From Rhizobiaceae bacterium (lineage in GTDB: Bacteria > Pseudomonadota > Alphaproteobacteria > Rhizobiales > Rhizobiaceae), in the NCBI GenBank assembly GCA_041397625.1, contig JAWKWH010000005.1:86271-150270 (forward strand): DNA of 64,000 bases, read 5' to 3'. Positions 5,914-41,858 of the stretch are shown piece by piece. The stretch's first letter is position 1; every line of letters begins with the position of its first letter. The notes beneath the pieces were generated by a model, which was not told the DNA's origin, searched no databases, and was given only the letters and a program-made list of their open reading frames with translations. Position numbers and translations under genes: made by a program.

Positions 5914-6750
5914 TCAGCCGGCACATTCCTCGGCCAGTTCGAGGTTTGCCACGGTACCCAGCGCCTCGATGATTTCGGCGGCAACGAGGCTGGCGATCAC
6001 GGCGGGACGCTTGTCGTGCAACCTGCTCTTGCCGATCGGGCAGACAAGCCGGCCAAGCGCCGCCCTGTCGCCGCCCTGCTTAACGTACCAGCTGGCGAAC
6101 GTGGCGCGCTTGGTCTTCGAGCCGATCATGCCGACATAGGCCGCGTCACCGCGCGCCAGCGCTTCCTGGGCGATCAGGAAGTCGAGCGAATGGTCATGGG
6201 TAAGGATGACGAAGGCGCTGCCGGCGGGCGCCTCGCGAACCACCGATTCCGGCACGGCCGTCAGGCAGGTTTCGACCGATTTCGGCGCACGCTCGAGTTC
6301 GTTTGCCCGGGTGTCGACCAGCACGGGTCGCACCGGCAACAGCGCCAACGCACTGGCGAGCGCATTACCCACATGTCCCGCGCCGAACAGATAAATATGT
6401 GGTTCGGCGGCCATCTGCTTTTCAAGTTCTGTAACCGCGGCTTCGGCAAGCGCGTGGTCCAGCCGTTTCAGGCTGATGGCCACGCGGCCACCGCAGCACT
6501 GGCCGATCTCGGGTCCGAGCGGAATGGAAATTTCCGCGGCTGTCTCGCCGGCGGCAAGCATCGCCCGCGCGCGGTCGATCGCCATGTATTCGAGCTGGCC
6601 GCCTCCGATCGTCAGGAACAGCGCCGAGGGCGACACCAGCATCCAGGCCCCGCGTTCGCGCGGGGTGGAACCCCTCGCCTCGGCAACCTCCACCTTCACC
6701 GTTTCCGGATTGGCGCGGAGGAAATCCCTGATGTCGTCCGCAGCGGCCAT
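5914..6750 (-). CDS. xdhC: Xanthine dehydrogenase accessory/maturation protein XdhC
   Basis: ORF 5914..6843 trimmed to ATG 6750 (5 nt after the xdhB stop). XdhC/CoxI family with Rossmann-like YLFGAGHVGNALA. Last gene of the xdh operon. Confidence 0.85.
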   Translation of the reverse strand: MAAADDIRDFLRANPETVKVEVAEARGSTPRERGAWMLVSPSALFLTIGGGQLEYMAIDRARAMLAAGETAAEISIPLGPEIGQCCGGRVAISLKRLDHALAEAAVTELEKQMAAEPHIYLFGAGHVGNALASALALLPVRPVLVDTRANELERAPKSVETCLTAVPESVVREAPAGSAFVILTHDHSLDFLIAQEALARGDAAYVGMIGSKTKRATFASWYVKQGGDRAALGRLVCPIGKSRLHDKRPAVIASLVAAEIIEALGTVANLELAEECAG

Positions 6751-6755
6751 GACCG

Positions 6756-9104: not shown

Positions 9105-9114
9105 AATACCTCCC

Positions 9115-10587
9115 TCAGGCCGCCGCGCCGCGCCGGATTGTCGCCCCGGCTGCGCCATTCTGTTCCATGACAAAGCGGCGCAGCAGGTTCTTCGCCGTCA
9201 GCATGCGATATTCCGCGCTGGCGCGCATGTCGCTGATCGGCTGGAAGTCCGATTCCAGGGCCGTCACTGCATCGGCGATCGATTGATCGTCGAGCGCCTT
9301 GCCGACAAGGGCCTTTTCGGCGTTCCCAGCCCGTTTGGGCGTCGCCGCCATGCCGCCAAAACAGATTGCCGCCTCGGAAACCGTGCCATCGTCGCTGAGC
9401 CGAACGCGGATGGCTACGCAGACCGACGAGATATCCTCGTCGCGGCGCTTGGAGATCTTGTAGGCGGCAAACCGGTCGCCGGCGCCAGGTAGCGGCACGT
9501 CGATGCGCTCGACGAAATCGCCGGTCTCGCGGTCCTGCTTGCCATAGGCGATGAAGAACTTCTCCAAGGGCAGCGTCCGGCGTTTTCCGCCACGGCGCAA
9601 TGTCACCGTGGCGCCGAGCGCGATCAGCGGCGGCGGCGTGTCGCCGATCGGCGAACCGTTGGCGACATTGCCGCCGATCGTGCCCATGTTGCGCACCTGC
9701 TCGCCGCCGATCCGCTCCCAGAAACCCGACAATTGTGGAATATGCTTGCTGATCGTGTCGAAGGCCTGCGTGTAGGTGACGCCGGCACCAATGGCGATCG
9801 TACCGTCGCCGACACTGATCTCCTGCAACTCGGCGAGGTGGCCGATGAACACAGCCGGCGAAATTTCACGCATGAATTTCGTCACCCAAAGCCCGACATC
9901 GGTCGAACCGGCAACGATCGTCGCCTGAGGATGCTCTTCCAGAACCGCCGCCAGGTCGTCGGCGCTGGCCGGCACGATGATACGGTTTTCGTCCGGCCCG
10001 CATTCCACCCGGTTCCCGTCGGCAAGTTCCTTGAGTTTCGCGGTAACCGCCTCGCGCTCCCGGACCAGCGGGTCGTCCCCCGGCAGGCCGATCTTGCCGG
10101 CCGCCCTGGCCGCGCGCACGATCGGCGCATAGCCGGTGCAGCGGCACAGATTGCCCTGCAATGCCTTCTCCACCGCATGGTCATCGGGCGAGGGATTTCC
10201 CATCCAGAGCCCGTAGAGCGACATGACGAAGCCCGGGGTGCAGAAGCCGCATTGCGAGCCATGGTGGTCGACCATCGCCTGTTGCACCGGGTGCAGCGCG
10301 CCGTCCGTGCCGCGCAGATGCTCGACCGTCACCACATGACAGCCGTCAAGCGACCCGACGAAGCGGATGCAGGCATTCACGGTCTCGTAAACCAGTTCGC
10401 CGCCGAGCAGCCGGCCGACCAGCACCGTGCAGGCACCGCAATCGCCCTCCGCGCAACCTTCCTTGGTGCCGCGCAGGCGCCGTTCGAGCCTCAGATAGTC
10501 CAGCAATGTGTCGGACGCGCCCGCCGACCGGACCGACACCGGTTCGTCGTTGAGCAGGAAGCGGATTTCGTTACGGGGTTTGGCCAT
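9115..10587 (-). CDS. xdhA: Xanthine dehydrogenase Fe-S/FAD-binding subunit
   Basis: Two 2Fe-2S motifs (CAEGDCGACTV, CRCTGYAPI) followed by an FAD-binding CO-dehydrogenase-flavoprotein-type domain. Confidence 0.9.
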   Translation of the reverse strand: MAKPRNEIRFLLNDEPVSVRSAGASDTLLDYLRLERRLRGTKEGCAEGDCGACTVLVGRLLGGELVYETVNACIRFVGSLDGCHVVTVEHLRGTDGALHPVQQAMVDHHGSQCGFCTPGFVMSLYGLWMGNPSPDDHAVEKALQGNLCRCTGYAPIVRAARAAGKIGLPGDDPLVREREAVTAKLKELADGNRVECGPDENRIIVPASADDLAAVLEEHPQATIVAGSTDVGLWVTKFMREISPAVFIGHLAELQEISVGDGTIAIGAGVTYTQAFDTISKHIPQLSGFWERIGGEQVRNMGTIGGNVANGSPIGDTPPPLIALGATVTLRRGGKRRTLPLEKFFIAYGKQDRETGDFVERIDVPLPGAGDRFAAYKISKRRDEDISSVCVAIRVRLSDDGTVSEAAICFGGMAATPKRAGNAEKALVGKALDDQSIADAVTALESDFQPISDMRASAEYRMLTAKNLLRRFVMEQNGAAGATIRRGAAA

Positions 10588-10593
10588 GCCGGT

Positions 10594-10950
10594 TCAGCTC
10601 CCGCGATAAGTCGAATAGCCGTAGGGAGAGACGAGCAGCGGCACATGGTAATGCGCCGAAGCATCGCCGACTCCGAAACGGACAGGAACGACATTGAGGA
10701 AGGCGACGCCGCCGCCGCCGATATAGTCTCCGGCGTGAAACCGAAGCTCGTATTCGCCGATCCGGAAATCGGCACCCGCCAGCATGGGACCGTCTGTGCG
10801 CCCATCGTCATTGGTGCGCACCGACTTGACAAGTTCAGCCTCGTCGCCGTCGACGCGGTAGAGGTCGATCCGCATATCCGCGGCCGGGCACCCCTTGGCG
10901 GTGTCCAACACGTGGGTGGTCAGGCGGCCGTCCGCCGATCCGTCGCTCAT
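10594..10950 (-). CDS. hiuH: 5-hydroxyisourate hydrolase (transthyretin-like)
   Basis: ORF trimmed to ATG 10950. TTHVLD N-terminus and C-terminal YRGS signature. Stop is 6 nt before the xdhA start. Confidence 0.88.
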
Positions 10951-11149
10951 CTGGTCGTTCCTCCACTGGCCTGCAAACAACGTACTATGACGCGCCGCCC
11001 GGTCGGTGAAAATTGCCGGAGCATTGTAGCACTTTCAAAATTTCCAAGAGGATCAATCGCCGATTTCCCGAAACACGCGGCAAAACGGGACGATATCGCC
11101 GCTATCCGGGCGGGCCAGCGGCTTGTTCCCGCACATTGTTACAGGCCGC

Positions 11150-16523: not shown

Positions 16524-16531
16524 TCCTTCAT

Positions 16532-16682: not shown

Positions 16683-16704
16683 CTATGCGTCGTGGAGGAT
16701 CACA

Positions 16705-26382: not shown

Positions 26383-26552
26383 CGCCGGATCGACTTATTC
26401 GCGGTAGCGATCGTAACTGGATCCGCCTTGGATCGGGGTCCGGCGCGGCTTTCCGCACGCACGGCACGTGACCCACAACCGGCATGTGGGATAGCGCCGA
26501 CAACCGTCGCCGGCATCGGTAATTAACTCATTGCTTACATATGCTTAGCAAG

Positions 26553-26564
26553 ATTGTTGACAAT
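26553..26564 (+). promoter_or_regulatory. Operator O1 ATTGTTGACAAT (candidate site of the GntR/FCD regulator at 38767-39558)
   Basis: Perfect copy of a 12-bp palindrome also found at 33900, 39570 and 39606. Intergenic, 233 nt upstream of the ABC substrate-binding-protein gene. Confidence 0.7.
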
Positions 26565-26602
26565 CCGCTTGCCATTTGGGGCGGATTGGTGTAGGTTCCA
26601 AA

Positions 26603-26615
26603 TTGAGTAGAAGCG
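26603..26615 (+). promoter_or_regulatory. Conserved leader block TTGAGTAGAAGCG
   Basis: Identical 13-mer occurs on the minus strand at 33862-33874, in both cases downstream of the operator. Function unknown (promoter element or leader RNA). Confidence 0.35.
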
Positions 26616-26797
26616 AACTTAGCGCTGACGGCGCTCTGGTAATTGCTCTCCGTTGTCCTGAGAACCGGGAGAGAGGGGACAATGCTTCGCTCACCAAACC
26701 CAAAACATATGTCATTCGTCGGCATGGGCTCGATCGCGAGCAGGTATGTGCGCCGCACTTATCCTGCGCTTTCGGCTGTGCCGGGAAATGGAGGAGA

Positions 26798-27784
26798 ATG
26801 ATGAAACGCTTGCTGACCGCGGCCGTCGCCGCGTTGACGATCACCGCGCCGGCTGCCGCTGCCGACCAGGTGAAATTCCAGCTCGACTGGCTGCCGGGTG
26901 GCGAGAAGGCGCCCATCTTCGTTTGCATGGAACGCGGTTTCTGCGCCGACGCCGGCCTTGAAGTGACGATTGAATCGGGCCGTGGTTCATCGGAAGCGCT
27001 GACCAAGCTGGCGACCGGCATTTCCGATATCGGCATTTCGGGCATCGGCGCGCTGATGGCCGCCCGCGCCACCGAAAACATCGCGGTAACCGCTGTGATG
27101 TCCGTCTTCAACAAGGGCCCGCACGCCTTCTTCACCATCGAGGGCAACGGAATTTCCAAGTTCGCGGACGTGGGCGGCCGCAGCATCGCCACTTCGCCGT
27201 TCACCTCGTCCAACATCTACCTGCCGCTGGTGCTGGCCGACAACGGCTTGTCGGAAGACAGCATCAAGGTCACCAAGGCCGATCCCGGCGCTCTCGGGCC
27301 GATGCTGGTAACCGGGCAGGTCGACGCGATCATCGCGTGGGTTACCGACGTGTCGCGCTACACCGGCCAGGCCACCGAGGCCGGCAAGGAACTGATCGTG
27401 CTGCCGTGGTCGGAAGCCGGTCTCGACATGTATTCGACGTCCGTCGTTGCCTCCGACAAGTTCCTGACCGAGCGCCCCGACGTGGCTCGCCGCTTCGTGG
27501 CCGCGTTCATGAAATCGATCGAATACTGCCGCGAGAACCCCGATGACGCCGCTCAGGCGGTGGTCGACGCGGTGCCGGAAATCGACGCCAAGAGTGCGCG
27601 CGGATCGCTTGCCGACGCGTTGGTGTTGATGTTCAACGAAGTGACGGAGCAATATCCGCTAGGTAGCTTCGATCCGGAGCGGCTGGCCGCCACCTGGAAG
27701 CGCGTCGCCGCCGCCCAGGAGCTCGACGAGAGCGCCGTCAACCCGGAAGACGTCGTCGATCGCAGCTTCATGCCGGGATCCTGA
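26798..27784 (+). CDS. ABC transporter substrate-binding protein, NMT1/THI5-like (nitrate/sulfonate/pyrimidine-type fold)
   Basis: ORF 26576..27784 trimmed to ATG 26798 (GGAGGAG upstream). Signal peptide [25 protein letters not shown]1/THI5-like fold ([14 protein letters not shown]). Confidence 0.85.
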
Positions 27785-27786
27785 AC

Positions 27787-28578
27787 ATGACTGCCGCAAC
27801 CCGAAACCAGACCGCGATCAGATTTGCCGGCGCCGGCATCACTTTCGACACGGCGTCCGGTCCCCTGGTTGCGCTGAAGGACGTTGATCTTTCCATCGAC
27901 GATCATGAGTTCGTTGCGATCCTCGGACCATCGGGTTGTGGCAAGTCCACGCTGATGCGGCTCGTCGCCGGGCTCCTGAGACCCACCGAGGGCACCGTGG
28001 AGGTGAACGGCCAGAAAGTCGTCCAGCCGCGCGACAATATCGGCATCGTGTTCCAGAAGCCGACCTTGCTGCCGTGGGCAACGCTGGAAGACAACGTCGT
28101 TTTCCCGATGAAGCACAAATACGGCAAGGTAACCGCCAGGCAGCGCCAGCGCGCCCACGAACTGCTCGACATGGTCGGGCTGGCAAAGCTGGAGAAAAGG
28201 CGCCCCGGCCGTCTTTCAGGGGGCATGCAACAGCGCGTGGGCATTGCGCGCGCGCTGTTGCACGATCCGGACATCCTGCTCATGGACGAACCGTTTTCGG
28301 CGCTGGACGCGCTGACGCGCGAGGAAATGGGTTTCGAACTGCTGAACATATGGCAGGAGACGCGCAAGACCGTGATGTTCATCACCCACTCGATCGCCGA
28401 GGCAGTACTGCTGTCCGACCGGGTGATCGTCATGAGCCGCGGGCCGGGAGCGAAAGTTGCCGAGGATCTCAAGGTGCCGGCCGGTCGGCCGCGACACGGC
28501 GAATCCATGCGCTCTTCCGACATGCAGGACCTTACCGCCCATCTGCGTGACATCCTCATGAAAAAGGAGGCGGCTTGA
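27787..28578 (+). CDS. ABC transporter ATPase (NitT/TauT family)
   Basis: Walker [10 protein letters not shown], signature [14 protein letters not shown], Walker B ILLMDEP. Confidence 0.9.
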
Positions 28579-29363
28579 CCATGGCCAGCGCTATCGATCG
28601 CATGAACCGGATCCCCGGCGGATTGCCGGCACTGACCTTCCTCATCATCCTCGTCATCTGGGAGGTCTCAACCAGGGTCCTCCAGATACCGTCCTTCCTG
28701 CTGCCCGCACCTTCGCGTATCGTCGAGGGTTTCGACGGTATAACCGTGGCGCGCTGGGCCGGCCATGTGTGGTCAACCTTCCGCGTGGCCATGACGGGCT
28801 ATCTGACGGCCATCGCGGTCTCGCTGCCGCTGGCGATCATGCTTACGCGTTACAAGACCGTGTCGAGCAGCATCTATCCGCTGCTGGTCGTCATCCAGTC
28901 GACACCGATCGTCGCGGTGGCGCCGATCATCGTCGTCACGCTCGGTTCGGGTGATCTGTCGCGGGTGCTGATCACCTTCCTGATTTCCTTCTTCCCGCTG
29001 GTCGTGTCGATGACCACCGGCCTGAAGGCAACGCCTGAAGAACTAATCGAGCTGTCGCACAGCCTCAGGGCGCCGCTGATCCGCGAGTTCACGCAGATCC
29101 GCATCCCCTTCGCCATTCCCTACATCTTCTCGGGCCTGAAAATCTCGGTGACGCTGTCGGTGATCGGCGCGGTGGTGGCGGAGTTCGTCGCCGCGGAAAA
29201 AGGCATCGGCTACTTCATCCAGTTCTCGACATCCCTGTTCAAGATCCCGCAGGCATGGGCAGGCCTCGCGATATTGGTGTTGATGTCGCTGACATTGTTC
29301 CAGCTCATTTCCTTCATCCAGCGCCGCTTCTTCCCCTGGTCGTTGCCGCGCGAAACGAAGTGA
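28575..29363 (+). CDS. ABC transporter permease (NitT/TauT family)
   Basis: Overlaps the ATPase stop (TTGA; start is TTG). Six-TM permease of the SsuC/TauC type. Confidence 0.88.
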
Positions 29364-29688: not shown

Positions 29689-30276
29689 CTATTCGCTGCG
29701 CACGCCCTGCCAGCGATGCGCCAGCCCGACATCGAGGTCGAAGAGATCGAGCACGCGGCCGATCGTGTGGTCGACCATGTCGTCGAGGCTTTGCGGTTTT
29801 GCGTAGAAGGCGGGAACCGGCGGGTAGATGATGGCGCCGGCCTCGGTGACGGCGGTCATGTTGCGCAGATGGCCGAGATGTAATGGAGTTTCGCGCAACA
29901 AAAGCACCAGGCGCCGGCGTTCCTTCAGCGTCACATCGGCGGCGCGCGACAACAGGTTCGACGTGGTGCCGGTGGCGATCTCGGCCAGCGATTTGACCGA
30001 ACATGGCGCGACGATCATGCCGAGCGTCTTGTAGCTGCCCGAGGCGCAGGCCGCGCCGATATCCTTGTTGGAGTGGCTGACGGTGGCAAGCGCCTCCAGA
30101 TCCCTCAGCCCGAAATCGGTCTCCGCCGCCATCGTCACCCGTGCCGCATTGGAAACGACCAGATGCGTTTCGACGCCGATCTCGCGCAGCACTTCCAGCG
30201 TCCGCTTGCCATAGACGACACCGGACGCGCCGGAAATACCGACGATGATCCTTGGTTTCGCCTTGCTGTTGCTCAC
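29689..30276 (-). CDS. ubiX: Flavin prenyltransferase UbiX (prFMN synthase)
   Basis: Full-length UbiX/Pad1 family (IIVGISGASG, MIVAPCSVKSLAEIA). Confidence 0.92.
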   Translation of the reverse strand: MSNSKAKPRIIVGISGASGVVYGKRTLEVLREIGVETHLVVSNAARVTMAAETDFGLRDLEALATVSHSNKDIGAACASGSYKTLGMIVAPCSVKSLAEIATGTTSNLLSRAADVTLKERRRLVLLLRETPLHLGHLRNMTAVTEAGAIIYPPVPAFYAKPQSLDDMVDHTIGRVLDLFDLDVGLAHRWQGVRSE

Positions 30277-30282
30277 AATCGT

Positions 30283-31671
30283 CTAGCCTTGGCCTAGGCT
30301 CTTCAAGATCGCGGCCGCGCGTTCGCGGGCCGCGGCGCCGATCTCGGCGCGCACACCATGGAAATTCGGTCCGCGCGTAGCGTCAAGCCCCATGCGCGAG
30401 GTGGTTCCGATACCGCTTGCCGACGGGTCGAGCGCATTGCCGGGCAACCCCTCGATGATCACCACGTCGCGATGCGGCTGGAAGTGGGTGGACAGCGCCC
30501 ACAGCACTTCGGAATCATTGGTGATGTCGACATCCGAGTCGACGACAACCACGTTCTTCAGATATTGGTCCCAGCCGAGCAGGCCGAGCATGACCTGGCG
30601 GCCCTCGCCCTCGCGCGACTGGTCAATGGCGATGTAGGCGTGGAAATGCGTGCCCGACGATGGGTAGTGTACGGCGGTAACCGACGGAAAACGCGCCTTC
30701 AATTTCTCCACCACCTCGGCCTCGCGCGGAATGCGGCCGAGGTTGAGATGTTCGGCCGAGTTGCCGCCGGCGACGCTGACCAGGATGGCCTTGTCGCGGC
30801 GCATGACCGTCTCGACAGTGAACAGGTTATTGGTCGAACGGTCCGACGAATAGCCGGTGAACTCGCCGAACGGACCTTCTTCGACATGGGCCTCGTGGTC
30901 GATGACGCCTTCGAGCACGATCTCCGCATGGGCAGGGACGCGAATCCCGTATTTGGGCGTGCGCACGACCTCCAGCGCTCCGCCCATCAGCCCGCCGGCG
31001 ACCACGCGTTCGTCCTCGCCGAAGGCGAGCCGGGCCGAGGCGGCAATCATGAATTTCGGATGCCCGCCGATCACCATGGCGACCGGCATCGGTCTGCCCT
31101 TCTCCTTCGACATGTTGAGCAGCCGCCACAGATGGCCGCGCGAATGCAGGGAGGTGGCAAGCGTACTGGGCGAATTGATCATCGCCCGATGGTAGGAAAG
31201 GTTGCCGGCGCCGGTCTCCGGATGTTCGCCGATGATGATGCCGCTGGTGATGTATTTGGCGCGGTCGGTCTCGAAATGTTTGACCATCGGCAGGCGCGCC
31301 AGATCGATATCGGAGCCGCCCATAACCTGCTCGGTGATGGGTGCGGCGGAGACCTCTTTCGGCTCGACGCCGCGGCGGGCATGCTGCTGATAGGCCTCGT
31401 GCAGACGCGCCTCGTCGACGCCGAACATCGATGCGATGCGACGACGCGAACCGAAGATGTTGCAGATGACTTCCGTGTCCAGGCCGGCGACATTGCGCAG
31501 ATGCAGAATCGGGTGACGGCCCTTGGCGGCCAGGTTCCAGATCAGCGCGGTGGCATCCTGGTCGTCGGAGACCTCGGCCTCGATATCGAGGACATCGTCG
31601 GGATTGGCGGCGCGATAGTCGGCAAGAAAGCGCCTCACATCCTGGGTGTGGAACTGCTGGCTGTCCGACAT
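30283..31671 (-). CDS. UbiD-family prFMN-dependent (de)carboxylase, substrate unknown
   Basis: ORF 30283..31776 trimmed to ATG 31671 (GGGAGG 9 nt upstream). UbiD motifs (GNLSYHR, EGPFGEFTGY). Stop is 6 nt before ubiX. Confidence 0.88.
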   Translation of the reverse strand: MSDSQQFHTQDVRRFLADYRAANPDDVLDIEAEVSDDQDATALIWNLAAKGRHPILHLRNVAGLDTEVICNIFGSRRRIASMFGVDEARLHEAYQQHARRGVEPKEVSAAPITEQVMGGSDIDLARLPMVKHFETDRAKYITSGIIIGEHPETGAGNLSYHRAMINSPSTLATSLHSRGHLWRLLNMSKEKGRPMPVAMVIGGHPKFMIAASARLAFGEDERVVAGGLMGGALEVVRTPKYGIRVPAHAEIVLEGVIDHEAHVEEGPFGEFTGYSSDRSTNNLFTVETVMRRDKAILVSVAGGNSAEHLNLGRIPREAEVVEKLKARFPSVTAVHYPSSGTHFHAYIAIDQSREGEGRQVMLGLLGWDQYLKNVVVVDSDVDITNDSEVLWALSTHFQPHRDVVIIEGLPGNALDPSASGIGTTSRMGLDATRGPNFHGVRAEIGAAARERAAAILKSLGQG

Positions 31672-31729
31672 CGCGTCAATCCTCCCGAAAAAGGCGGCGG
31701 TCGCATATGCGGCCGCCGCGCGTGGTCTG

Positions 31730-32674
31730 TCAGGCGTCCACCTTGTGCTTGCCGGTAGCGCGGTCGACGCCGGCATAGCTGTCCTTCAGGCGCGCTTCGG
31801 CGTCGCGCTTGTCGCGCGGCGGCGGCGTCGGGTCGATGCCGACCAGCCTGGCGATGTTGTTGCCGAGATAGCCTTCCAGATCGTCCTCCGACAGGTTCAT
31901 GCCCTGCGGCGGCTCATGGCAGAGCACCTCCAGTTCGCGCAGCCACATGCCCGGATCGTTCGGCGGGCTGTCGGTGCCGAAGACAATTCTGTCCTTCGGC
32001 AATTGCTGGGCGAACTCGACGATGCGCGACTGGAAGCACCAGCCGCTCTCGCAATAGACATTGGGCGTGTCCATTGCCATCCAGAAGGCCTCGAACGAGT
32101 AATTGCCGCCGGTCTGGATGCCGAAATGGCCGATGATGAAGTTGACCATCGGGAACTCGCGGATGATCGGGTAGAACATCGTCGGGATGGTGTAGGGCCC
32201 GTCGCCGGTGTGGATCAGCACCACGACGCCGAGCTCGGCGCATTTCTTCATCGCCGGCCGCAGCCACTCCAGCGCCCGGTCCGGCCGGTAGCCGTGCATG
32301 TTGGCGTGCAGCTTGAGCATCTTGAAGCCATATTCCTTGACGTGGAATTCGAGCTCCGCGGCACCGTTCTCAGGCCCCCAACGCGGATTGTAGTTGAAGT
32401 TGCCGATGAACCGGTCGGGATATTTCTGGCACAGCTCGGCGCAGTAGGACATGTAGTCGCGGATACCCTCGCGGCCCATGCGGTTGCCGTCGCGATAGCC
32501 GGTATTGCCGGGCGGCGGCTGGATGAAGCCCATGTCGATGCGGCGCGGCTTGCCGTTGATCATGTAAGGGCCGTCCATCAGTTTCAGCATGCGCTCGCCG
32601 GTGAACGGCTCGCCGGTATGGCGCCACGCCTCGTCGACCAGGTTGGTCGGATGCAGGTGGGTATCGATGATCAT
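31730..32674 (-). CDS. Amidohydrolase_2 (ACMSD/LigW/IDCase-type) metal-dependent enzyme, paralog A
   Basis: N-terminal DTHLH (HxH), HTGDGP, GHFG and FGTDSPP motifs consistent with a metal-binding TIM-barrel hydrolase/decarboxylase. Confidence 0.8.
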   Translation of the reverse strand: MIIDTHLHPTNLVDEAWRHTGEPFTGERMLKLMDGPYMINGKPRRIDMGFIQPPPGNTGYRDGNRMGREGIRDYMSYCAELCQKYPDRFIGNFNYNPRWGPENGAAELEFHVKEYGFKMLKLHANMHGYRPDRALEWLRPAMKKCAELGVVVLIHTGDGPYTIPTMFYPIIREFPMVNFIIGHFGIQTGGNYSFEAFWMAMDTPNVYCESGWCFQSRIVEFAQQLPKDRIVFGTDSPPNDPGMWLRELEVLCHEPPQGMNLSEDDLEGYLGNNIARLVGIDPTPPPRDKRDAEARLKDSYAGVDRATGKHKVDA

Positions 32675-32714
32675 TGTCGTCTCCGTTGGAAAGTGTTTCG
32701 GTCAGGGGTGCCGA

Positions 32715-33641
32715 TCAAGCGGTTTCCAGCTCGATACCGTGCTGGCGCAGGCGGTCTTCGGCTTCCTTGACGGTGGCGGGCGGAGGGGTCGTGTCCAAGC
32801 CGATCATGCGGGCAACATTGTTGCCGAGGTAATCCTCGAGCGTATCCTCGTCGAGGTTCAGACCCTGCGGCGGCTCGTGGCAGAGCACCTCCAGCAAGTT
32901 GATCCACATACCCGGCTCGTTGGGTGGTGTGTCGGTACCGAACAGGATCTTGTGCGGCGGCAGTTCCTTGGCGAACTCGACGATGCGCGACTGCAGGCAC
33001 CAACCGCTCTCGGCGTAGACATTCGGCTCGTCCATCGCCATCTGGAACGGCTCGAACGTGTAGACGCCGCCGGTCTGGACGCCAAAATGCGCGAGGATGA
33101 AATTGACCTCCGGGAATTCGCGGATGATCGGCACGAATTCGGTGGGGATCGAATAGGGACCGTCGCCCGTATGAACCTTCACCATCACGCCGAGATCGGC
33201 GCATACGCGCATGGCCGGGCGCAGCCAGTCGAGCGCGCGGTCGGGACGGTAGGCATGCATGTTGGCCTGCAACTGCACCATCTTGAAATCGAACTCCTTG
33301 ACATAGCGTTCGATTTCCTCGGCTCCGTTCCCGGTGCCGTAACGCGGGTTGTAGACGAAGCAGCCGATGAAGCGGTCCGGATGCTCGGTGACCATCTTCT
33401 CGGTATAGGCCATGTATTCGCGGATGGCCGCCTTGCCTTCCTTCTCGTGGATGCCGTCGGTGTAGATGGTGTTGCCCTGCGGCGGCTGGATGAAAGCCAT
33501 GTCCACGCGGCGCGGCTTGCCGTTCACGTAGAAGGGGCCGTCCATCATCTTCAGCAGGCGCTCGCCGGTGAACGGCTCGCCATCATGGCGCCAGGCGAGG
33601 TCGACCAGATCGGTCGGATAGCAGCTAATATCAATGATCAT
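32715..33641 (-). CDS. Amidohydrolase_2 paralog B lacking the HxH metal motif
   Basis: ORF 32715..33797 trimmed to ATG 33641 (GGAGAA upstream). Roughly two-thirds identical to paralog A by eye, but the N-terminus is DISCY instead of DTHLH. HTGDGP, AHFG and FGTDTPP are retained. Confidence 0.78.
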   Translation of the reverse strand: MIIDISCYPTDLVDLAWRHDGEPFTGERLLKMMDGPFYVNGKPRRVDMAFIQPPQGNTIYTDGIHEKEGKAAIREYMAYTEKMVTEHPDRFIGCFVYNPRYGTGNGAEEIERYVKEFDFKMVQLQANMHAYRPDRALDWLRPAMRVCADLGVMVKVHTGDGPYSIPTEFVPIIREFPEVNFILAHFGVQTGGVYTFEPFQMAMDEPNVYAESGWCLQSRIVEFAKELPPHKILFGTDTPPNEPGMWINLLEVLCHEPPQGLNLDEDTLEDYLGNNVARMIGLDTTPPPATVKEAEDRLRQHGIELETA

Positions 33642-33861
33642 GGTGTTTCTCCTTGGATGCGTAGCAGGGGCTTGCCGGGGTTCGCGGAGGCGCGCTGACG
33701 AAGCCGGCCGGTTGCCGGCCCGTCGCGAACGGAATGGCCCGTTCTGCCAGCAGCATCCGCAAACGCCTTCGGCCGTCACCGACCGGGCGATGGTCAATTT
33801 CTCTTAGGGAAAAGTTGGTCACCGCAGCCCTCGAGATCAGAGTTCATCGAGCAATTGGCTG

Positions 33862-33874
33862 CGCTTCTACTCAA
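33862..33874 (-). promoter_or_regulatory. Conserved leader block TTGAGTAGAAGCG (minus strand)
   Basis: Identical to 26603-26615. Lies 25 nt downstream of operator O2 in the direction of transcription. Confidence 0.35.
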
Positions 33875-33899
33875 GCTGATTAAAGCGCAATCCTCCCGG

Positions 33900-33911
33900 A
33901 TTGTCAACAAT
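33900..33911 (-). promoter_or_regulatory. Operator O2 ATTGTTGACAAT (read on minus strand)
   Basis: Perfect 12-bp palindrome within GGATTGTCAACAATCC. 258 nt upstream of the paralog B start, just downstream of the cobW-like gene terminator. Confidence 0.7.
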
Positions 33912-33959
33912 CCTGTCCGGCCGTTTGCCAAGAAAACGATGGCATCGCGGTCGCGCGAC

Positions 33960-33996
33960 AAAAAAAGAAAGCCCGTACCGTCTGTCCGGTACGGGC
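33960..33996 (-). terminator. Rho-independent terminator after the COG0523 gene
   Basis: Minus strand reads GCCCGTACCG-gacaga-CGGTACGGGC followed by TTTCTTTTTTT. Lies 42 nt after the stop at 34038. Confidence 0.85.
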
Positions 33997-34037
33997 TGCG
34001 AGGTGGCGACCTCATCCGGTCGCGGCGGGAGATGGCG

Positions 34038-35084
34038 TTATTGCTCGACAAGGCATTCGCGCAGCCGGGCCTCGATTCCCCTGCGGTCGAGGCGACGGCC
34101 GATGAACACGATCTTCGACCTGCGTTCCTCGTCCTGCCAGGGGTGGTCCGGGCGCAGGTCGACCAGCTTGTGCACGGCCTGCAAAACGTAAAACCGGTCG
34201 TCGCCTGCAACCGACAGGATGCCCTTGGTGCGGAAGATGTCCTCGCCCTTCTCGTCGAGATAGTCGTGCAGGAAAGCCTGCAGCCTGCCGAGATCGAACG
34301 GCGCCTGCATGGTGAAGCTGTGCGAGGTCACCGTCTCGTCGTGCACATGGCCGGCGTGATGCGCGTGGTCGTGATGGTCCTGGCCGTCATCGTCCATGTC
34401 GATCTGCAGGATCTCGGCGCGCTCGCGAACATAGGAGGGCTGGAAACCGTTGACGTTGAGGATGCGGCTAAGATCGACGACACCGTAGCTGGAGCGCATG
34501 ATCTCGGCAGTCTGGTTCAGGCCGCGCAGTTCCTTTTCAAGAACGTCAAGATCGCCCTCGCTGGCAAGATCGACCTTGTTGACGATAATCCGGTCGGCGG
34601 CGACGATCTGGTCCACCGCCTGGTTGTCCTTGCCGTCGAGCACCGGATCGTAGAGGTGCTGGTCGACATGCTTGGCGTCGACCAGGGTAACGATCGCGTC
34701 GAGATTGACCTCGCCTGCCACTTCCTGATCGACGAAGAAGGCGGTCGCCACCGGCGTCGGATCCGCCAGTCCGGAGGTTTCGACAATAATGTGGTCGAAC
34801 TTGTCCTTCTGCGCGATCAGCTTCCTCATCACGTCGATCAGGTCGTTGCGCACGTCGACGAAGCAGCAGATGCAGCCATTCTGCATCTGGAAGATCTCCT
34901 CGTCGGAGGCGAGCACCAGATCGCTGTCGACGTCGATCTCGCCGACCTCGTTCTCGATCACCGCGATGCGGTAACCATGGCGTTCGGTAAGGATGTGGTT
35001 GAGTAGCGTCGTCTTGCCCGAACCGAGGAACCCGGTCAGGATCGTGATCGGAATCTTGCCGTCCTTGATCTCATGTATCTGCAT
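34038..35084 (-). CDS. COG0523 (CobW/ZigA-like) metallochaperone GTPase
   Basis: Walker A GFLGSGKTTLL, CxCC motif GCICCF, His-rich stretch DHHDHAHHAGHVHDE. Start ATG overlaps the stop of the Mo-subunit gene (TGATG). Confidence 0.88.
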   Translation of the reverse strand: MQIHEIKDGKIPITILTGFLGSGKTTLLNHILTERHGYRIAVIENEVGEIDVDSDLVLASDEEIFQMQNGCICCFVDVRNDLIDVMRKLIAQKDKFDHIIVETSGLADPTPVATAFFVDQEVAGEVNLDAIVTLVDAKHVDQHLYDPVLDGKDNQAVDQIVAADRIIVNKVDLASEGDLDVLEKELRGLNQTAEIMRSSYGVVDLSRILNVNGFQPSYVRERAEILQIDMDDDGQDHHDHAHHAGHVHDETVTSHSFTMQAPFDLGRLQAFLHDYLDEKGEDIFRTKGILSVAGDDRFYVLQAVHKLVDLRPDHPWQDEERRSKIVFIGRRLDRRGIEARLRECLVEQ

Positions 35085-37387
35085 CAGACCGCCTCCTTCT
35101 GCCTCAGCCCCTCGAGGATGTCCTCGGGCGTTATCGGATAATGGTGGAACCGGACGCCGATGGCGTCGTGGATGGCGTTGGCGATGGCCGGCCCGATGGC
35201 GATGATCGGATCCTCGCCGACGCCCTTGGCGCCCCAGGGACCGCCGGGATCGGGCGCCGCCTCGATAATGACCGTCCTTATGTCGGGCATGTCCATCGAC
35301 AGCGGCATCTTGTAGTCCACCAGGCCGGCATTGAGGGGGCGGCCGGTCTTCATGTCGACGATGTAGTCCTCGGTCAGCGTGTGGCCGATGCCCTGCTGGA
35401 TGCCACCCTCGATCTGTCCCTCGGCGGCAATCGGATGGATCACCCGGCCGACATCGTGCACGGGAACGACCCTGACGACTTCGACGATGCCCGTACCCGT
35501 ATCGACGGCGACCTCGACGAAATGGGCGGCAAACGAATAGGACTTGGTCGGCTCATAAGTGCCGTTGCCGATGATGTTGGCGGCCGGAACGCCACGCGAC
35601 GGCCCCATCGCCTCTGCGACCGTCATCGACCGGCCCGCGTCGCCCACGACGAAGATAACCCCCTCGTCGATGTCCAGCCTCTCGGCAGCGGCCTGCATCT
35701 TCTCGGCGGCGCGGTCGAGCACTTGCGCCCGCGCCTTTTCCGCCGCGAGCTTTGTCGCGCTTCCGACCAGATAAGTGGTGTGGCTGGCAAATGCGCCGAT
35801 GTCCCACGGCACGACATCGGTATCGCCATGGATGACACCGACGGTCTCGAAGGGAACACCCAGCGCCTCGGCGGCGATCTGGGCCAGCGCGGTGTGCGCC
35901 CCGGTGCCGAGGCCGGCAGCGCCGGTGAGCAGGGTGACCGATCCGTCCTCATTGACCTTGATCGTGGCATTGCCCTGCTCTTTGATACCGGGATAGGCCG
36001 ACGATCCGTGCATCTCGCAGCCTATGCCATAGCCCCGCAGCACCGCCGGCTTGCCCGGAACGCTGCGATCCGAGCCACGCAGCCTCGTCCATTCGAACTC
36101 GTCGAGGCCGCGCTTGATACAGGCTTCCAGGCCATGGCCGACGACCGGATGACCGGATGGGGCGACATCGCCCTCGCGCACGGCGTTCTTCAGTTTCAGT
36201 TCGGCGGGGTCCATGCCGAGCCGCTCGGCCGCCTCGTCGAGTTGGATGTCGATCGGGAAGTAGGTCTGCACCACTCCGTAACCACGGAAGGCGCCGGAGA
36301 TCGGCGTATTGGTATAGACCGCGCGGCCGTCGATACGGACGTTCTCGCAGCGATAGAGCGAGACCGCCGAATTAGTGCCGACGATCGTGACGCCGGGGCT
36401 GTGCGATCCGTAGGCGCCCGAATCGTAGACGATGCGCATGTCACGCGCGGTAATCGTGCCGTCTTTCCTGAAGCCCTGCTTGAGCGAGAGCTTGAAGGGA
36501 TGGCGTGAGCGCCCGGCAACGAAGGTTTCATGTCGGGTGAATTCCATGCGCACCGGCCGCCTCGTCTCCTTCGCCAGAAGCGCGCACAGGAATTCGTGCT
36601 GGAAGCAGTCCTGCTTGGCGCCAAAGCCGCCGCCCATGTGATCGACGAGCACGCGCACCTTGGTAAGCGGCAGCCCGAGCACCTCGGCAAGGATGCCGCG
36701 CACCATGAAACTGGTCTGGGTCGAGGTCCAGAAGGTCAGCTTGTTGGAGCCGTCCCAATCGGCCATGCAGACATTGGGCTCCATGTAGGCCGGGATCGGA
36801 CGGCCGCCTGAAAACTCTCCTTCCAGGATCAGGTCCGCCTCGGCAAATCCGCGCGCTAGATCGCCGCGCTCGACAATAACGGGATCGAGCACGAGATTGC
36901 CGCCCGGGCCGACATTATGGATCAGCGGCGCGCCCGGCTTCTGCGCTTCCTCAGGATCGAAGACGGCGGGCAGCGCCTCGTATTCGACCTCGATCAGGTC
37001 GAGCGCCTCGTCGGCGATTTCCTCGCTGATCGCGGCAATGGCGGCCACGCCCTCGCCCCAGAAGCGCACCCGGTCGTCGAGGATGTACTGGTCTTTGGTG
37101 CACGACGCCGAGCGTGGATGCGGCGAACCGTAGTGCAGCACGCGCGGCACGTCCTTGTGGGTCAGCACCGCCTTGACGCCCGGATGGGCGAGCGCCCTGG
37201 AAACGTCGATACGCTTGATTTTCGCGTGCGCGATCTCGGCGCGCTTGATCTTGCCGAACAACAGTCCGGGAAGCGTAATGTCGCTTGTGTAAAGCCCTTC
37301 GCCGGTGACCTTTTCCAGCACGTCGTCGCGCTTGACGCTCTTGCCGACGGTACGGAATTGGCGGTCGAATTTCACATGTTCGGTCAT
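35084..37387 (-). CDS. Molybdenum hydroxylase large (molybdopterin-binding) subunit, xanthine dehydrogenase/aldehyde oxidase family, substrate unknown
   Basis: ORF trimmed to ATG 37387 (ATGA overlap with the small subunit). HMGGGFGAKQD, ISGAFRGYG and AKGVGEDPII (active-site Glu) motifs. Confidence 0.88.
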   Translation of the reverse strand: MTEHVKFDRQFRTVGKSVKRDDVLEKVTGEGLYTSDITLPGLLFGKIKRAEIAHAKIKRIDVSRALAHPGVKAVLTHKDVPRVLHYGSPHPRSASCTKDQYILDDRVRFWGEGVAAIAAISEEIADEALDLIEVEYEALPAVFDPEEAQKPGAPLIHNVGPGGNLVLDPVIVERGDLARGFAEADLILEGEFSGGRPIPAYMEPNVCMADWDGSNKLTFWTSTQTSFMVRGILAEVLGLPLTKVRVLVDHMGGGFGAKQDCFQHEFLCALLAKETRRPVRMEFTRHETFVAGRSRHPFKLSLKQGFRKDGTITARDMRIVYDSGAYGSHSPGVTIVGTNSAVSLYRCENVRIDGRAVYTNTPISGAFRGYGVVQTYFPIDIQLDEAAERLGMDPAELKLKNAVREGDVAPSGHPVVGHGLEACIKRGLDEFEWTRLRGSDRSVPGKPAVLRGYGIGCEMHGSSAYPGIKEQGNATIKVNEDGSVTLLTGAAGLGTGAHTALAQIAAEALGVPFETVGVIHGDTDVVPWDIGAFASHTTYLVGSATKLAAEKARAQVLDRAAEKMQAAAERLDIDEGVIFVVGDAGRSMTVAEAMGPSRGVPAANIIGNGTYEPTKSYSFAAHFVEVAVDTGTGIVEVVRVVPVHDVGRVIHPIAAEGQIEGGIQQGIGHTLTEDYIVDMKTGRPLNAGLVDYKMPLSMDMPDIRTVIIEAAPDPGGPWGAKGVGEDPIIAIGPAIANAIHDAIGVRFHHYPITPEDILEGLRQKEAV

Positions 37388-37866
37388 GACCTTGTCGCCT
37401 CGATGTCGCTGGCAGCGCCTTTGACGGCGTCGAAAATCTTGGTGTAGCCGGTGCACCGGCAGATATTGCCCGACAGGCCGAAGCGGATTTCCGCGTCCGA
37501 CGGGTTCGGATTCTCGCGCAGCAACTGGTTGGCCATCATCAGTATCCCGGGCGTGCAAAAGCCGCACTGGGACGCACCGTGCTTCATGAAATTGTCCTGC
37601 AGCGGATGCAGGTCGTCGACCGACGCCTGAAGGCCCTCGACGGTTTCGACGCTCGCACCATCGGCTTCCACCGCCAGCATCAGGCAGGCATTGATCGGCC
37701 TGCCGTCGACGATGACGGTGCAGGCGCCGCAGTCGCCGACGTCGCAGCCCTTCTTGGTGCCGGTCAGGCCGACTTCCTCGCGCAGCGTGTCGAGCAGGGA
37801 ACGGTAGTCCTCGACGACGACTTCGCGCTCTTCACTGTTGATCGTCATATTGATGATGCGTTTCAT
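37384..37866 (-). CDS. Molybdenum hydroxylase small subunit (two 2Fe-2S clusters)
   Basis: ORF trimmed to ATG 37866 (ATGA overlap with the FAD subunit; alternative ATG at 37848). CDVGDCGACTV, CGFCTPG and CRCTGY motifs. Confidence 0.9.
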   Translation of the reverse strand: MKRIINMTINSEEREVVVEDYRSLLDTLREEVGLTGTKKGCDVGDCGACTVIVDGRPINACLMLAVEADGASVETVEGLQASVDDLHPLQDNFMKHGASQCGFCTPGILMMANQLLRENPNPSDAEIRFGLSGNICRCTGYTKIFDAVKGAASDIEATRS

Positions 37867-38726
37867 GCTGTCTGCTCCAGGGCTTGCAGGATGGCGCGTT
37901 CGGTGAGGACGCCAACCATGCGGCGCCGGTAGTCGGCGGAACTGCGTACATTGCTGATCGGCGTGCATTCCTGCATCGCCTTTGCCGCGGCGGCACCGAT
38001 CGCGTCGGGGCTCAGGTCGGACCCCTTGAGTAGTGCCTCGGCTTCCGAGGCGCGCAGCACGGTCGGGCCGACAGCGCCAAGCGCGACACGGATGTCGCTG
38101 CAACGGCCGCCGTCACGGTCAAGACTGACCGCTACGCCGACCGTTGCCAGCTCCATCGCCTTGCGCCTTCCGTGCTTTATATAGGCGCGGGCGCTGTCGG
38201 GCCTCGGAGCGGGCACCGACAGGCCGACCGCGATCTCTCCCGGCGACAGCACCGTGCGGCCGGGTCCTGTGAAAAATTCGGCCAGCGGCACCGTGCGGTT
38301 GCCGTCCGGATTGTAAATCTCGATTGCCGCTTCATCGGCGATCAGCGGTGGAATGGTGTCGGCCGACGGCGAAGCACGGCAGATATTGCCGATCACCGTG
38401 GCGCGGTTGCGCACCTGGATCGAGCCGAGTTCGCTCAGCGCCGCGGCGAAGTTCGGATAATGCCGGCGCACCTCCGCGGAAGTCTCCAACTCGCGCGCAG
38501 TGGTTAGCGCGCCGAATCTCAGCCCATCACTGTCATCGTAGGAGAAACCGTCGAGATTAGGGATCTTCTTGATATTGATGACGTGGCGGACGGTACGCAG
38601 CCGTTCGCGAATCTCGACCAGCAGATCGGTACCGCCGGCAAAGAAAAACGCCTCGTCGCCCAGTTCCTTCTTGAGGGCCGACGCCGCGGCCAGCGTCGTC
38701 GGTTCATGATATGCAAAGCGCCTCAT
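37863..38726 (-). CDS. Molybdenum hydroxylase medium (FAD-binding, CoxM-like) subunit
   Basis: FAD_binding_5 / CO-dehydrogenase flavoprotein domains (FFAGGTDLL, RNRATVIGNI). Confidence 0.88.
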   Translation of the reverse strand: MRRFAYHEPTTLAAASALKKELGDEAFFFAGGTDLLVEIRERLRTVRHVINIKKIPNLDGFSYDDSDGLRFGALTTARELETSAEVRRHYPNFAAALSELGSIQVRNRATVIGNICRASPSADTIPPLIADEAAIEIYNPDGNRTVPLAEFFTGPGRTVLSPGEIAVGLSVPAPRPDSARAYIKHGRRKAMELATVGVAVSLDRDGGRCSDIRVALGAVGPTVLRASEAEALLKGSDLSPDAIGAAAAKAMQECTPISNVRSSADYRRRMVGVLTERAILQALEQTA

Positions 38727-38766: not shown

Positions 38767-39558
38767 CTAGTCGGGGGATTGAAGACCGCGCCTTGCCTTT
38801 TGAGCGCTGCTACCGGTTCTCCGATTTCTTGACGATTTCTCTTTTCCCGCAGGACGCGCGACTTCCTCCGCCTTGCGCGCGCTTTCCTGCATCATGGTCG
38901 TTTCGAGTTCGCACAGCAGACCGGAATTCAGCCGTGCCGCCCTTTCGCCGTCGCCACGTTCCAGCGCCTCGATCGTTGCGAAATGGGTCGGCGTGCCGTG
39001 GAACTTCGACGTGCCGCCGACCCGCTCGGGCGAGAGCAACGGCTGGCAGTTCATCAGGTCTTCAAGGAAGCGGGTCAGCGGTGCGTTGCCGGCAAGCCGC
39101 GACATCGCCAGGTGGAAACTGCGCGACAGGCGATAGGCATCTTCGACGCGCCCCTTTTCATAGGCGCGATCCTCGGCTTCGACGATATCGCGCAGTTCTC
39201 CAAGCCCGGCCTCGTCGATCGTGGCGGCGAGCTTGCGCAACGCCATCTCCTCGACCGCCCGGCGCGCCTCGAACATTTGGCCGGCCTCGTCGGCATCAGG
39301 CTGGATAATCAGCGCGCCGCGGTTCTGGCTGAGTTCCACAAGCCCCATGCCGGCGAGCCGCACAAGCGCGTTGCGGATAGCCATGCGGCCGGCGCCGGTC
39401 GCTTCCGACAACTCGCGTTCGATAAGCCTGTCGCCGGCCTTCAGGCGAAACGCGTTGACCGCATCGACCACGCTATTGATCACACGCCCCTCGGCCTCAC
39501 GTCCGCTGCGACGTGTCCCGTTGGGCAGATCAAGAGCTGGAAACACGGAAGGCTTCAT
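38767..39558 (-). CDS. GntR-family regulator with FCD (FadR/VanR-type) effector domain
   Basis: wHTH (ERELSEATGAGRMAIRNALVRL) plus an all-helical FCD domain. ATG 39558 (GTG 39561 possible). 40 nt upstream of the FAD-subunit gene. Confidence 0.85.
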   Translation of the reverse strand: MKPSVFPALDLPNGTRRSGREAEGRVINSVVDAVNAFRLKAGDRLIERELSEATGAGRMAIRNALVRLAGMGLVELSQNRGALIIQPDADEAGQMFEARRAVEEMALRKLAATIDEAGLGELRDIVEAEDRAYEKGRVEDAYRLSRSFHLAMSRLAGNAPLTRFLEDLMNCQPLLSPERVGGTSKFHGTPTHFATIEALERGDGERAARLNSGLLCELETTMMQESARKAEEVARPAGKEKSSRNRRTGSSAQKARRGLQSPD

Positions 39559-39569
39559 CACGGCCTCGG

Positions 39570-39581
39570 ATTGTTGACAAT
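39570..39581. promoter_or_regulatory. Operator O3 ATTGTTGACAAT
   Basis: Perfect palindrome 8-11 nt upstream of the GntR/FCD start codon, next to the GAGG ribosome-binding site. Confidence 0.7.
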
Positions 39582-39605
39582 TCGGAGTGTACCAGCATCC
39601 GCGAG

Positions 39606-39617
39606 ATTGTCAACAAT
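39606..39617. promoter_or_regulatory. Operator O4 ATTGTCAACAAT
   Basis: Perfect palindrome 24 bp from O3 in the opposite centre orientation. Lies in the pyrF-gntR intergenic gap. Confidence 0.7.
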
Positions 39618-39808
39618 TTGCTTTCGCATACCGCGACTTTGCCTGCGATGCGGGACCGTATTCCACCGGCAATAACCATGGAGGCTGTCGAAGAACGGCG
39701 GCCAAAGCTGGTTTCGACCGGATTTCAGCGGTTGTCCTGACTGCCGAACGCCGCCTGCCTGACCGGTACGGGAGTCATGCCGCTCCAAGCCCCTTGCGAA
39801 TACAGCCC

Positions 39809-40726: not shown

Positions 40727-40746
40727 CGGCTTGTTCTCCGCTGTGC

Positions 40747-41082: not shown

Positions 41083-41100
41083 AACGCGCACTCCTTGGAA

Positions 41101-41796: not shown

Positions 41797-41858
41797 GGCT
41801 GCTTCCTGCTGGTTGACCGTCACCCTCTCGCTAACAACATTGCCGCGGACTAGCCAGA

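Follow-up and report, generated by a model that had tools for sequence, protein, structure and literature searches.

Two amidohydrolase paralogs beside UbiD and UbiX in a Rhizobiaceae bacterium: a predicted route from 6,7-dihydroxylumazine to xanthine

The stretch of DNA considered here (the window: 64,000 nucleotides of a Rhizobiaceae bacterium, assembly GCA_041397625.1, contig JAWKWH010000005.1, positions 86,271 to 150,270 of the forward strand) contains an operon in which two tandem amidohydrolase paralogs are followed by a UbiD-family decarboxylase and a UbiX flavin prenyltransferase, and the question it raises is what substrate would call for both enzyme types. The original prediction, made from the sequence alone, had proposed either the sequential removal of two carboxyl groups or one decarboxylation plus a ring hydrolysis, on a substrate made or modified by the neighbouring molybdenum (Mo) hydroxylase. 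The present analysis suggests, with a probability of roughly 0.88, that the four genes encode the steps from 6,7-dihydroxylumazine to xanthine and that they represent an alphaproteobacterial copy of the cluster I pathway of Cupriavidus sp. LA-1, in which lumazine and pterin are degraded to xanthine (Doi, Maeda and Takaya 2025, Commun Biol 8:1292; PMC12391406). In that study lumazine dehydrogenase (LuDH, LA1_0145-0147), the α2β2 enzyme 6,7-dihydroxylumazine isomerase (DHLI, LA1_0152/0151), xanthine-8-carboxylate decarboxylase (XCDC, LA1_0150) and UbiX (LA1_0144) were purified and assayed. The anatomy, orthology, synteny and ligand residues discussed below come from the sequence examined here, while the enzyme activities come from the LA-1 study. 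The operon is already explained by this published pathway, including its presence in Rhizobiales, and riboswitch-like leaders are the one possibly new part.

Four open reading frames (ORFs) on the minus strand, at 33641..29689, constitute the operon, in the order amidohydrolase B, amidohydrolase A, UbiD and UbiX and with intergenic gaps of exactly 40, 58 and 6 nt. This anatomy, together with the family assignments, had been described in the same way before and is confirmed by the ORF coordinates, Pfam and NCBIfam.

32715..33641, minus strand: predicted DHLI α (the earlier amidohydrolase B), ATG start behind AAGGAG, 308 aa
31730..32674, minus strand: predicted DHLI β (the earlier amidohydrolase A), 314 aa
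30283..31671, minus strand: UbiD (predicted XCDC), ATG start behind GGGAGG, 462 aa
29689..30276, minus strand: UbiX, GTG start, 195 aa

Both amidohydrolases match the Pfam family Amidohydro_2 (E = 8e-37 for amidohydrolase B and 2.5e-51 for amidohydrolase A), and they are 67% identical to each other, as expected for the two tandem paralogs that had been recognized at the outset; no NCBIfam model matches either of them. The β protein matches the Amidohydro_2 profile over its full length, whereas α matches only from profile position 33, and the N-termini differ, reading MIIDTHLH in β and MIIDISCY in α. The β subunit carries His6, His8, and Asp235, while α has Ser6 and Tyr8 at the positions of the two histidines, the HxH metal ligands being lost. 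The distinction is kept among the orthologs, with THLH or THMH in all 46 β sequences and xSCY in all 37 α sequences. It matches the LA-1 isomerase, the subunits of which are 65% similar: its β ligands are His6, His8, and Asp235, and its α subunit is indispensable in spite of missing two Zn-binding histidines, the lone paralog without metal ligands being inactive (PMC12391406). Orthology to the LA-1 proteins is argued here through other Cupriavidus genomes, by tblastn of all window proteins against related loci. In these comparisons the syntenic Cupriavidus proteins match β at 84-87% and α at 77-79% identity. Clustering at 90% identity places the β orthologs of Cupriavidus in the same group as those of Ensifer/Sinorhizobium (1137 members), and Cupriavidus sp. 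LA-1 itself is not among the listed members. The sequence comparison thus points to β as the catalytic, Zn-dependent subunit of DHLI and the counterpart of LA1_0151, and to α as the non-catalytic subunit, a predicted pseudo-enzyme that fits LA1_0152.

The decarboxylase of the operon gives matches to UbiD_N (PF20695, E = 3e-11), UbiD (PF01977, E = 8e-58), and UbiD_C (PF20696, E = 2e-35) in Pfam, and to the NCBIfam model "UbiD family decarboxylase" (TIGR00148) with 303 bits against a cutoff of 245. Its motifs N157-x4-R162 (NLSYHR162) and E265-GPFG-E270 line up with the active-site motifs of HmfF, and from the residue roles in Fdc1 and UbiD we take the Arg and the Glu-x4-Glu to be the active-site motif associated with prenylated flavin mononucleotide (prFMN). 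The UbiX protein matches Pfam Flavoprotein (E = 2.5e-41), NF004685 ("UbiX family flavin prenyltransferase", 267 bits, cutoff 188) and TIGR00421 (246 bits, cutoff 109). The Cupriavidus cluster orthologs are 65-66% identical for UbiD and 55-61% for UbiX. When species-representative genomes were searched with the UbiD alignment, a discrete clade emerged, with identities of 76-81% in Alphaproteobacteria, 64-65% in Cupriavidus over the best tblastn segment, 58-60% in Burkholderia and Paraburkholderia, and 57-64% in Actinomycetota, everything else being at or below 40%. The UbiD proteins of at least 55% identity adjoin a DHLI β gene wherever the flanking DNA suffices. By orthology, the UbiD protein is predicted to be XCDC, a prFMN-dependent xanthine-8-carboxylate decarboxylase, and UbiX would be its flavin prenyltransferase. 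The expectation that UbiD acts on a heteroaromatic acid is upheld by this assignment, and its substrate, which had been considered unreadable from the sequence, can be inferred from orthology plus synteny.

An alternative that has to be considered at this point is that the Amidohydro_2 proteins are decarboxylases of the ACMSD/LigW/IDCase type which, together with UbiD, remove two carboxyls from a heteroaromatic dicarboxylate, such as 2,5-furandicarboxylate (FDCA), a pyridine dicarboxylate, or an orotate-related compound. Several observations speak for it. The best solved-structure match of UbiD is HmfF (E = 2e-60; PDB 6H6V and 6H6X), homologs are called "2,5-furandicarboxylate decarboxylase 1" in JGI annotations, and a pyr-like operon lies next door. 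In addition, β has weak structural matches to LigW decarboxylases (E = 1.5e-7, residues 78-190, about 110 residues) and a marginal one to LigJ (E = 7.6e-4), and no others. The fold (the PF04909 TIM barrel), the N-terminal HxH and the late Asp of β are shared by LigW, ACMSD, IDCase, γ-resorcylate decarboxylase, LigI, and LigJ. However, the identity to HmfF is only 34%. The fold, the N-x4-R and E-GPFG-E motifs, and a UbiX partner are common to HmfF/HmfG and the window UbiD; HmfF falls outside the clade of at least 55% identity that travels with DHLI, the Pfam survey of the neighbours found no hmfD- or hmfE-like genes near the operon, and LA1_0150 has no activity on FDCA or 2-furoate (PMC12391406). 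A function as an HmfF-type FDCA decarboxylase was discarded on these grounds. As to the amidohydrolases, the similarity to decarboxylases is weak and partial, one paralog is ligand-less and would be inactive alone, and the enzyme assayed for the orthologous pair is an isomerase. The reaction of DHLI is a ring-contracting isomerisation rather than a decarboxylation and, unlike the homomeric decarboxylases and hydrolases of the family, DHLI works only as a heteromer that includes a paralog devoid of metal ligands (PMC12391406). A link to orotate or isoorotate through the adjacent pyr-like operon was likewise rejected, since the related loci have none of its genes next to their lumazine cluster. 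Two successive decarboxylations are therefore judged highly improbable: the amidohydrolases appear as subunits of one α2β2 isomerase, and the orotate, isoorotate, and pyridine-dicarboxylate substrates envisaged earlier find no support.

The assignment as a DHLI-XCDC-UbiX operon is consistent with the genes that lie upstream of it.

34038..35084, minus strand: CobW-like COG0523 GTPase, with Pfam cobW and CobW_C, a GCICC motif, and a His-rich stretch
35084..38726, minus strand: three-subunit Mo hydroxylase, predicted LuDH, from Pfam domains and start codons
38726..37863, minus strand: predicted LuDH FAD subunit
37866..37384, minus strand: predicted LuDH 2Fe-2S subunit
37387..35084, minus strand: predicted LuDH Mo subunit

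The Mo subunit shares 66-68% of its residues with its syntenic counterpart in Cupriavidus and falls below every NCBIfam cutoff for xanthine dehydrogenase (XDH), CODH, and PaoC, in agreement with the "novel XOR group" of PMC12391406, which is distinct from the XDH, COX, PAO, and IOR groups, and the Mo hydroxylase is accordingly assigned, on orthology, as a putative LuDH. The CobW-like GTPase is 54-56% identical to its Cupriavidus ortholog and syntenic in related loci; it is presumed to be the Zn chaperone of DHLI β. In LA-1, the GTP-binding protein LA1_0143 raises the solubility and activity of DHLI and always accompanies the β gene (PMC12391406).

The window and LA-1 cluster I hold the same six components, that is, the three-subunit Mo dehydrogenase, the COG0523 GTPase, the two members of the α/β pair, UbiD, and UbiX. 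Five Cupriavidus loci (L014, L019, L022, L023, and L047) contain α, β, UbiD, two further genes, the FAD, FeS, and Mo subunits, UbiX, and CobW, in a gene order that is exactly that of LA1_0152 to LA1_0143. The window differs in that UbiX stands directly after UbiD and the LuDH-CobW unit is located upstream. Lineage patterns also agree with PMC12391406, actinobacterial loci being without α and Burkholderia loci without the three-subunit LuDH, and the cluster has already been reported in Rhizobiales and Rhodobacterales in the same study.

As in LA-1, where the conventional XDH cluster consumes the xanthine formed from lumazine (PMC12391406), a conventional XDH is at hand in the window. A canonical xdhABC set with 5-hydroxyisourate (HIU) hydrolase (5914..10980, minus strand) lies about 20 kb from the four-gene operon and probably consumes the xanthine that the operon would yield.

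10980..10594, minus strand: HIU hydrolase, from Pfam
10587..9115, minus strand: XdhA with fused FeS and FAD domains, from Pfam
9173..6756, minus strand: XdhB, from Pfam
6843..5914, minus strand: XdhC, from Pfam

The proposed pathway would then proceed as follows. LuDH would hydroxylate lumazine at C7 and then at C6; the LA-1 enzyme converts lumazine to 7-hydroxylumazine and further to 6,7-dihydroxylumazine (PMC12391406). In the isomerase, a Zn-hydroxide of the β subunit would attack the C7 amide and N8 would re-close onto C6, such that the pyrazine ring contracts to the imidazole of xanthine-8-carboxylate, the course described for LA-1 DHLI (PMC12391406). The α subunit, having lost two His ligands, would serve only to yield an active β subunit, and the CobW-like GTPase may aid the folding or the Zn loading of DHLI. 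Since DHLI re-closes the ring to xanthine-8-carboxylate, the amidohydrolase step would create the carboxyl that UbiD removes. XCDC would take off this C8 carboxyl with prFMN supplied by UbiX, and the resulting xanthine would enter the xdhABC/HIU hydrolase route. The earlier suggestion of one decarboxylation plus a ring hydrolysis thus came close to the published chemistry, the actual step being a ring-contracting isomerisation, and the idea of an N-heterocyclic substrate prepared by the neighbouring Mo hydroxylase agrees with the LA-1 orthology.

The transcription signals around these genes are listed next.

39558..38767, minus strand: gene of a GntR/FCD regulator, from Pfam GntR and FCD
33898..33913: operator palindrome GGATTGTTGACAATCC, overlapping the TTGACA -35 box of the four-gene operon
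39568-39583 and 39604-39619: two operator palindromes in the regulator promoter
26551-26566: operator of an ABC importer
39613..39586, minus strand: promoter-like TTGACA-16-TACACT before the regulator gene
TTGACA-17 nt-TTTAAT, minus strand: putative promoter of the four-gene operon, its -35 box overlapped by the operator palindrome
33970..33997, minus strand: strong intrinsic terminator, with UUCUUUUUUU following an 11-bp stem that has 8 GC pairs
31694..31719, minus strand: GC-rich stem-loop followed by CUUUUUC, in the 58-nt gap between the β and UbiD genes

The operator core ATTGTNNACAAT occurs in four exact copies in the window, at 26553, 33900, 39570, and 39606, where 0.03 would be expected, and all four fall in three promoter regions. 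The operator that had been placed in front of the operon is thereby substantiated, with its palindrome at 33913..33898. The copies appear to define a small GntR/FCD regulon that comprises the ABC importer, the DHLI-XCDC-UbiX operon and, with two sites, the regulator-LuDH-GTPase operon. The four-gene operon would be expressed from the promoter overlapped by the GntR/FCD operator, and its TTGACA box is kept in relatives in the leader comparison. The terminator at 33997..33970 is predicted to end the upstream GntR-LuDH-CobW transcription unit and to set the four-gene operon apart from the CobW-like gene. No promoter-like sites were found inside the operon, and it is likely that one transcript runs across all four genes. 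The hairpin in the β-UbiD gap has a centroid structure of -20.5 kcal/mol, with a z-score of only -1.1. A strong hairpin of unrelated sequence directly follows the β stop codon in 17 of 17 related loci checked (e.g., at about 9920-9950 of L005), and this element may act as a partial terminator or attenuator, or as a stabiliser of the α-β mRNA.

The importer unit (26551..29363, plus strand) converges on the four-gene operon and is controlled by the same operator sequence; it is presumed to take up lumazine or a pteridine, the substrate being deduced from its surroundings.

26798-27784, plus strand: NMT1-type binding protein, from Pfam NMT1
27787-28578, plus strand: ABC importer ATPase, from Pfam
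28575-29363, plus strand: ABC importer permease, from Pfam

In L005, L007, L010, L011, and L045 the cluster is bordered by orthologs of the GntR/FCD regulator (49-51% identity), and the GntR-plus-ABC architecture is also present in two Rhodobacterales loci, L005 and L007. In LA-1, by contrast, the regulators are LA1_0142 and LA1_0148 instead of a GntR/FCD protein with four palindromic operators, and uptake is ascribed to purine/pyrimidine permeases instead of an NMT1-type ABC importer. The Ensifer cluster differs from the window as well, having an NCS2 permease and a LysR regulator in place of the GntR/FCD regulator and the ABC importer; no permease or regulator of this Ensifer type was found in the window. 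The lumazine cluster is common on megaplasmids of Sinorhizobium, Ensifer, and Shinella, 97 PLSDB plasmid records being matched, with generic annotation only. The Ensifer version, as in Ensifer sp. PDNC004 plasmid NZ_CP070354.1 (L081), adds an XdhC-like gene after UbiX to the permease and the regulator, and it also has a 431-aa amidohydrolase that is probably a CDA-like pterin deaminase.

A further difference from LA-1 is that the 64 kb contain no pterin deaminase of the PDA or CDA-like type, as judged by tblastn with the 431-aa Ensifer amidohydrolase at E 1e-5; in the Pfam survey of the window the only candidates were Amidohydro_1 proteins of the NagA-like and PyrC-like kinds. The deaminase is an accessory entry step outside the lumazine-to-xanthine core. 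The NagA-like deacetylase belongs to an N-acetylglucosamine-type cluster at 12663-17592, with SIS-domain proteins, a GntR/UTRA regulator, and a BadF/BcrA-type kinase, which is unrelated to the lumazine operon, and the Amidohydro_1 protein of that cluster should not be taken for the missing deaminase.

We have therefore also considered that the enzymology is the same while the entry substrate is not free lumazine or 7-hydroxypterin, being instead another 2,4-dioxopteridine or a related bicycle that arrives through the NMT1-type importer. The lack of a deaminase in the window and the transporter and regulator classes, unlike those of both LA-1 and Ensifer, would be accounted for in this way, and LA-1 LuDH is known to take several pterins and lumazines (PMC12391406). 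However, the identities of 84-87% for β and 66-68% for the Mo subunit to Cupriavidus argue for the same core substrates, and the genome may encode a deaminase outside the window, so that a different entry compound appears unlikely, though less so than two decarboxylations. Four points nevertheless weigh against the assignment of the operon to the LA-1 pathway. The link to the LA-1 proteins is indirect, through other Cupriavidus genomes, and the activities are carried over from the LA-1 study; UbiD, at 65% identity, could have shifted somewhat in specificity; the terminator-like hairpin between the β and UbiD genes bears on a single four-gene transcript; and, with no deaminase in the window and a regulator and a transporter unlike those of LA-1, the natural entry substrate could be another lumazine or pteridine.

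The leaders of the operon and of the importer raise the additional question of whether the pathway is controlled at the RNA level. Both contain an element that resembles the xanthine (NMT1) riboswitch, and both have a possible upstream open reading frame (uORF).

33849..33872, minus strand: P2-less xanthine (NMT1) riboswitch-like RNA GAGUAGAAGCG-CAGCC-AAUUGCUC, at the 5' end of the operon leader
26605-26648, plus strand: xanthine-riboswitch-like aptamer with P2, in the leader of the ABC binding-protein gene
33631..33822, minus strand: possible leader uORF of the operon, Shine-Dalgarno (SD) GAGGG, GTG start, 63 codons, the stop overlapping the α ATG
26683-26800, plus strand: leader uORF of the importer, 39 codons, the stop overlapping the binding-protein start

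RNAs of the xanthine riboswitch class bind xanthine as well as urate and turn gene expression off, NMT1/THI5-like transporters being their main context (Yu and Breaker 2020, PMC7373994). In an Rfam E-value search, RF03054 gives 22.0 bits at 33877..33844 in the operon leader and 20.9 bits at 26600-26653 in the transporter leader, both below the gathering score of 36; at the gathering score, the window and seven related loci yield no riboswitch, only tRNAs. Both window copies read GAGUA-GAAGCG...AAU-UGCUC and keep the P1 and J1 contact nucleotides G7-G12, A39, U40, A6-U41, and U5-G42, the roles of the xanthine-contacting residues being those of the crystal structure (Xu et al. 2021, PMC8266621). 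The transporter copy retains P1, P2, and every xanthine-contacting nucleotide, and it precedes an NMT1/THI5-like binding-protein gene, the commonest context of the class. In the operon copy P1 and the junction are kept, while all of P2 is replaced by a 5-nt loop with one invariant G; in contrast to the crystallised riboswitch, this copy is without the J2 strand that supplies G35 (PMC8266621).

Across 10 alphaproteobacterial genome loci the P2-less core does not vary, while the rest of the roughly 230-nt leader diverges; the core also occurs in 17 metagenome contigs, and its place is always the interval from the CobW-like gene to DHLI α. The metagenome scan with the P2-less pattern gave 30 matches, 13 of which were chance matches inside unrelated coding DNA. 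A version with P2 occupies the same place in Cupriavidus (25.8 bits) and in some alphaproteobacteria, with compensatory changes in 9 of 20 predicted pairs. In L005 and L007 the importer genes stand next to the cluster too, again carrying the aptamer found before the window importer.

An SD and a uORF start codon follow each window aptamer at a distance of about 30-50 nt. In the operon leaders of the window, L001, L005/L007, and L002-L009, an SD and a start codon lie about 50 nt beyond the motif and open a reading frame that runs 4 or 11 nt beyond the α ATG; the start is kept in relatives, the peptide sequence is not. Since a GC content of 62% makes long ORFs frequent, this is weak evidence for a uORF. 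In the minimum-free-energy and the P1-enforced structures, P1 competes with a helix that covers the uORF SD, and the ON/OFF direction obtained from such folding is unreliable. By manual comparison only, the competing helix pairs CUCGA with UCGAG in the window and CUCACC with GGUGAG in L001 and L005; a column-wise covariation count was dropped, as the MAFFT register differed between lineages.

The logic of the riboswitch class fits the window, where the controlled genes would produce xanthine, and product feedback by xanthine on a xanthine-making pathway would be the economical reading of the leader RNAs. We tentatively propose, as a possibility that we hold to be somewhat less probable than its opposite, that the pteridine-to-xanthine pathway is under the control of xanthine (NMT1)-type riboswitches, through a near-canonical aptamer before the NMT1-type ABC importer and a natural P2-less derivative of the form GAGUAGAAGCG-CNGNC-AAUUGCUC, which stands at the head of the DHLI-XCDC-UbiX operon in Rhizobiales and Rhodobacterales. 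No link between the xanthine riboswitch and lumazine was found in the literature searched, and the word "riboswitch" occurs 0 times in PMC12391406. Isoxanthopterin-deaminase-like genes have been noted behind NMT1 motif RNAs (Weinberg et al. 2017), and riboswitch control of the pathway, if true, would explain why xanthine riboswitches stand before such genes and before "NMT1/THI5-like" transporters. Ligand binding by the P2-less variant, if it occurs, would make it the most compact form of the xanthine aptamer, and a response to xanthine or to an intermediate such as xanthine-8-carboxylate or a hydroxylumazine would be possible. Functional leader RNAs would join the 2020 riboswitch class to the 2025 lumazine pathway and provide a natural minimal aptamer; the leaders are the part of the system that merits experiment.

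The value of the operon itself lies in annotation. Public records name its proteins "amidohydrolase family protein", "UbiD family decarboxylase", or "FDCA decarboxylase", and correct naming assigns a salvage route for pteridine pigments and folate breakdown to rhizobia.

The pyr-like operon mentioned above is packed into 39809-48852 on the minus strand and encodes a TRAP transporter (DctP and a fused DctQM), a PyrK-like subunit, a class-1B PyrD, an M20 protein resembling N-carbamoyl-amino-acid hydrolases, PyrC, PyrE, a family-less 114-aa ORF, and a type-2 PyrF, with a divergent HTH regulator beside it at 48999-49955 on the plus strand. It looks like a system for the uptake-linked utilisation or salvage of orotate, dihydroorotate, or carbamoyl-aspartate rather than for housekeeping pyrimidine synthesis.

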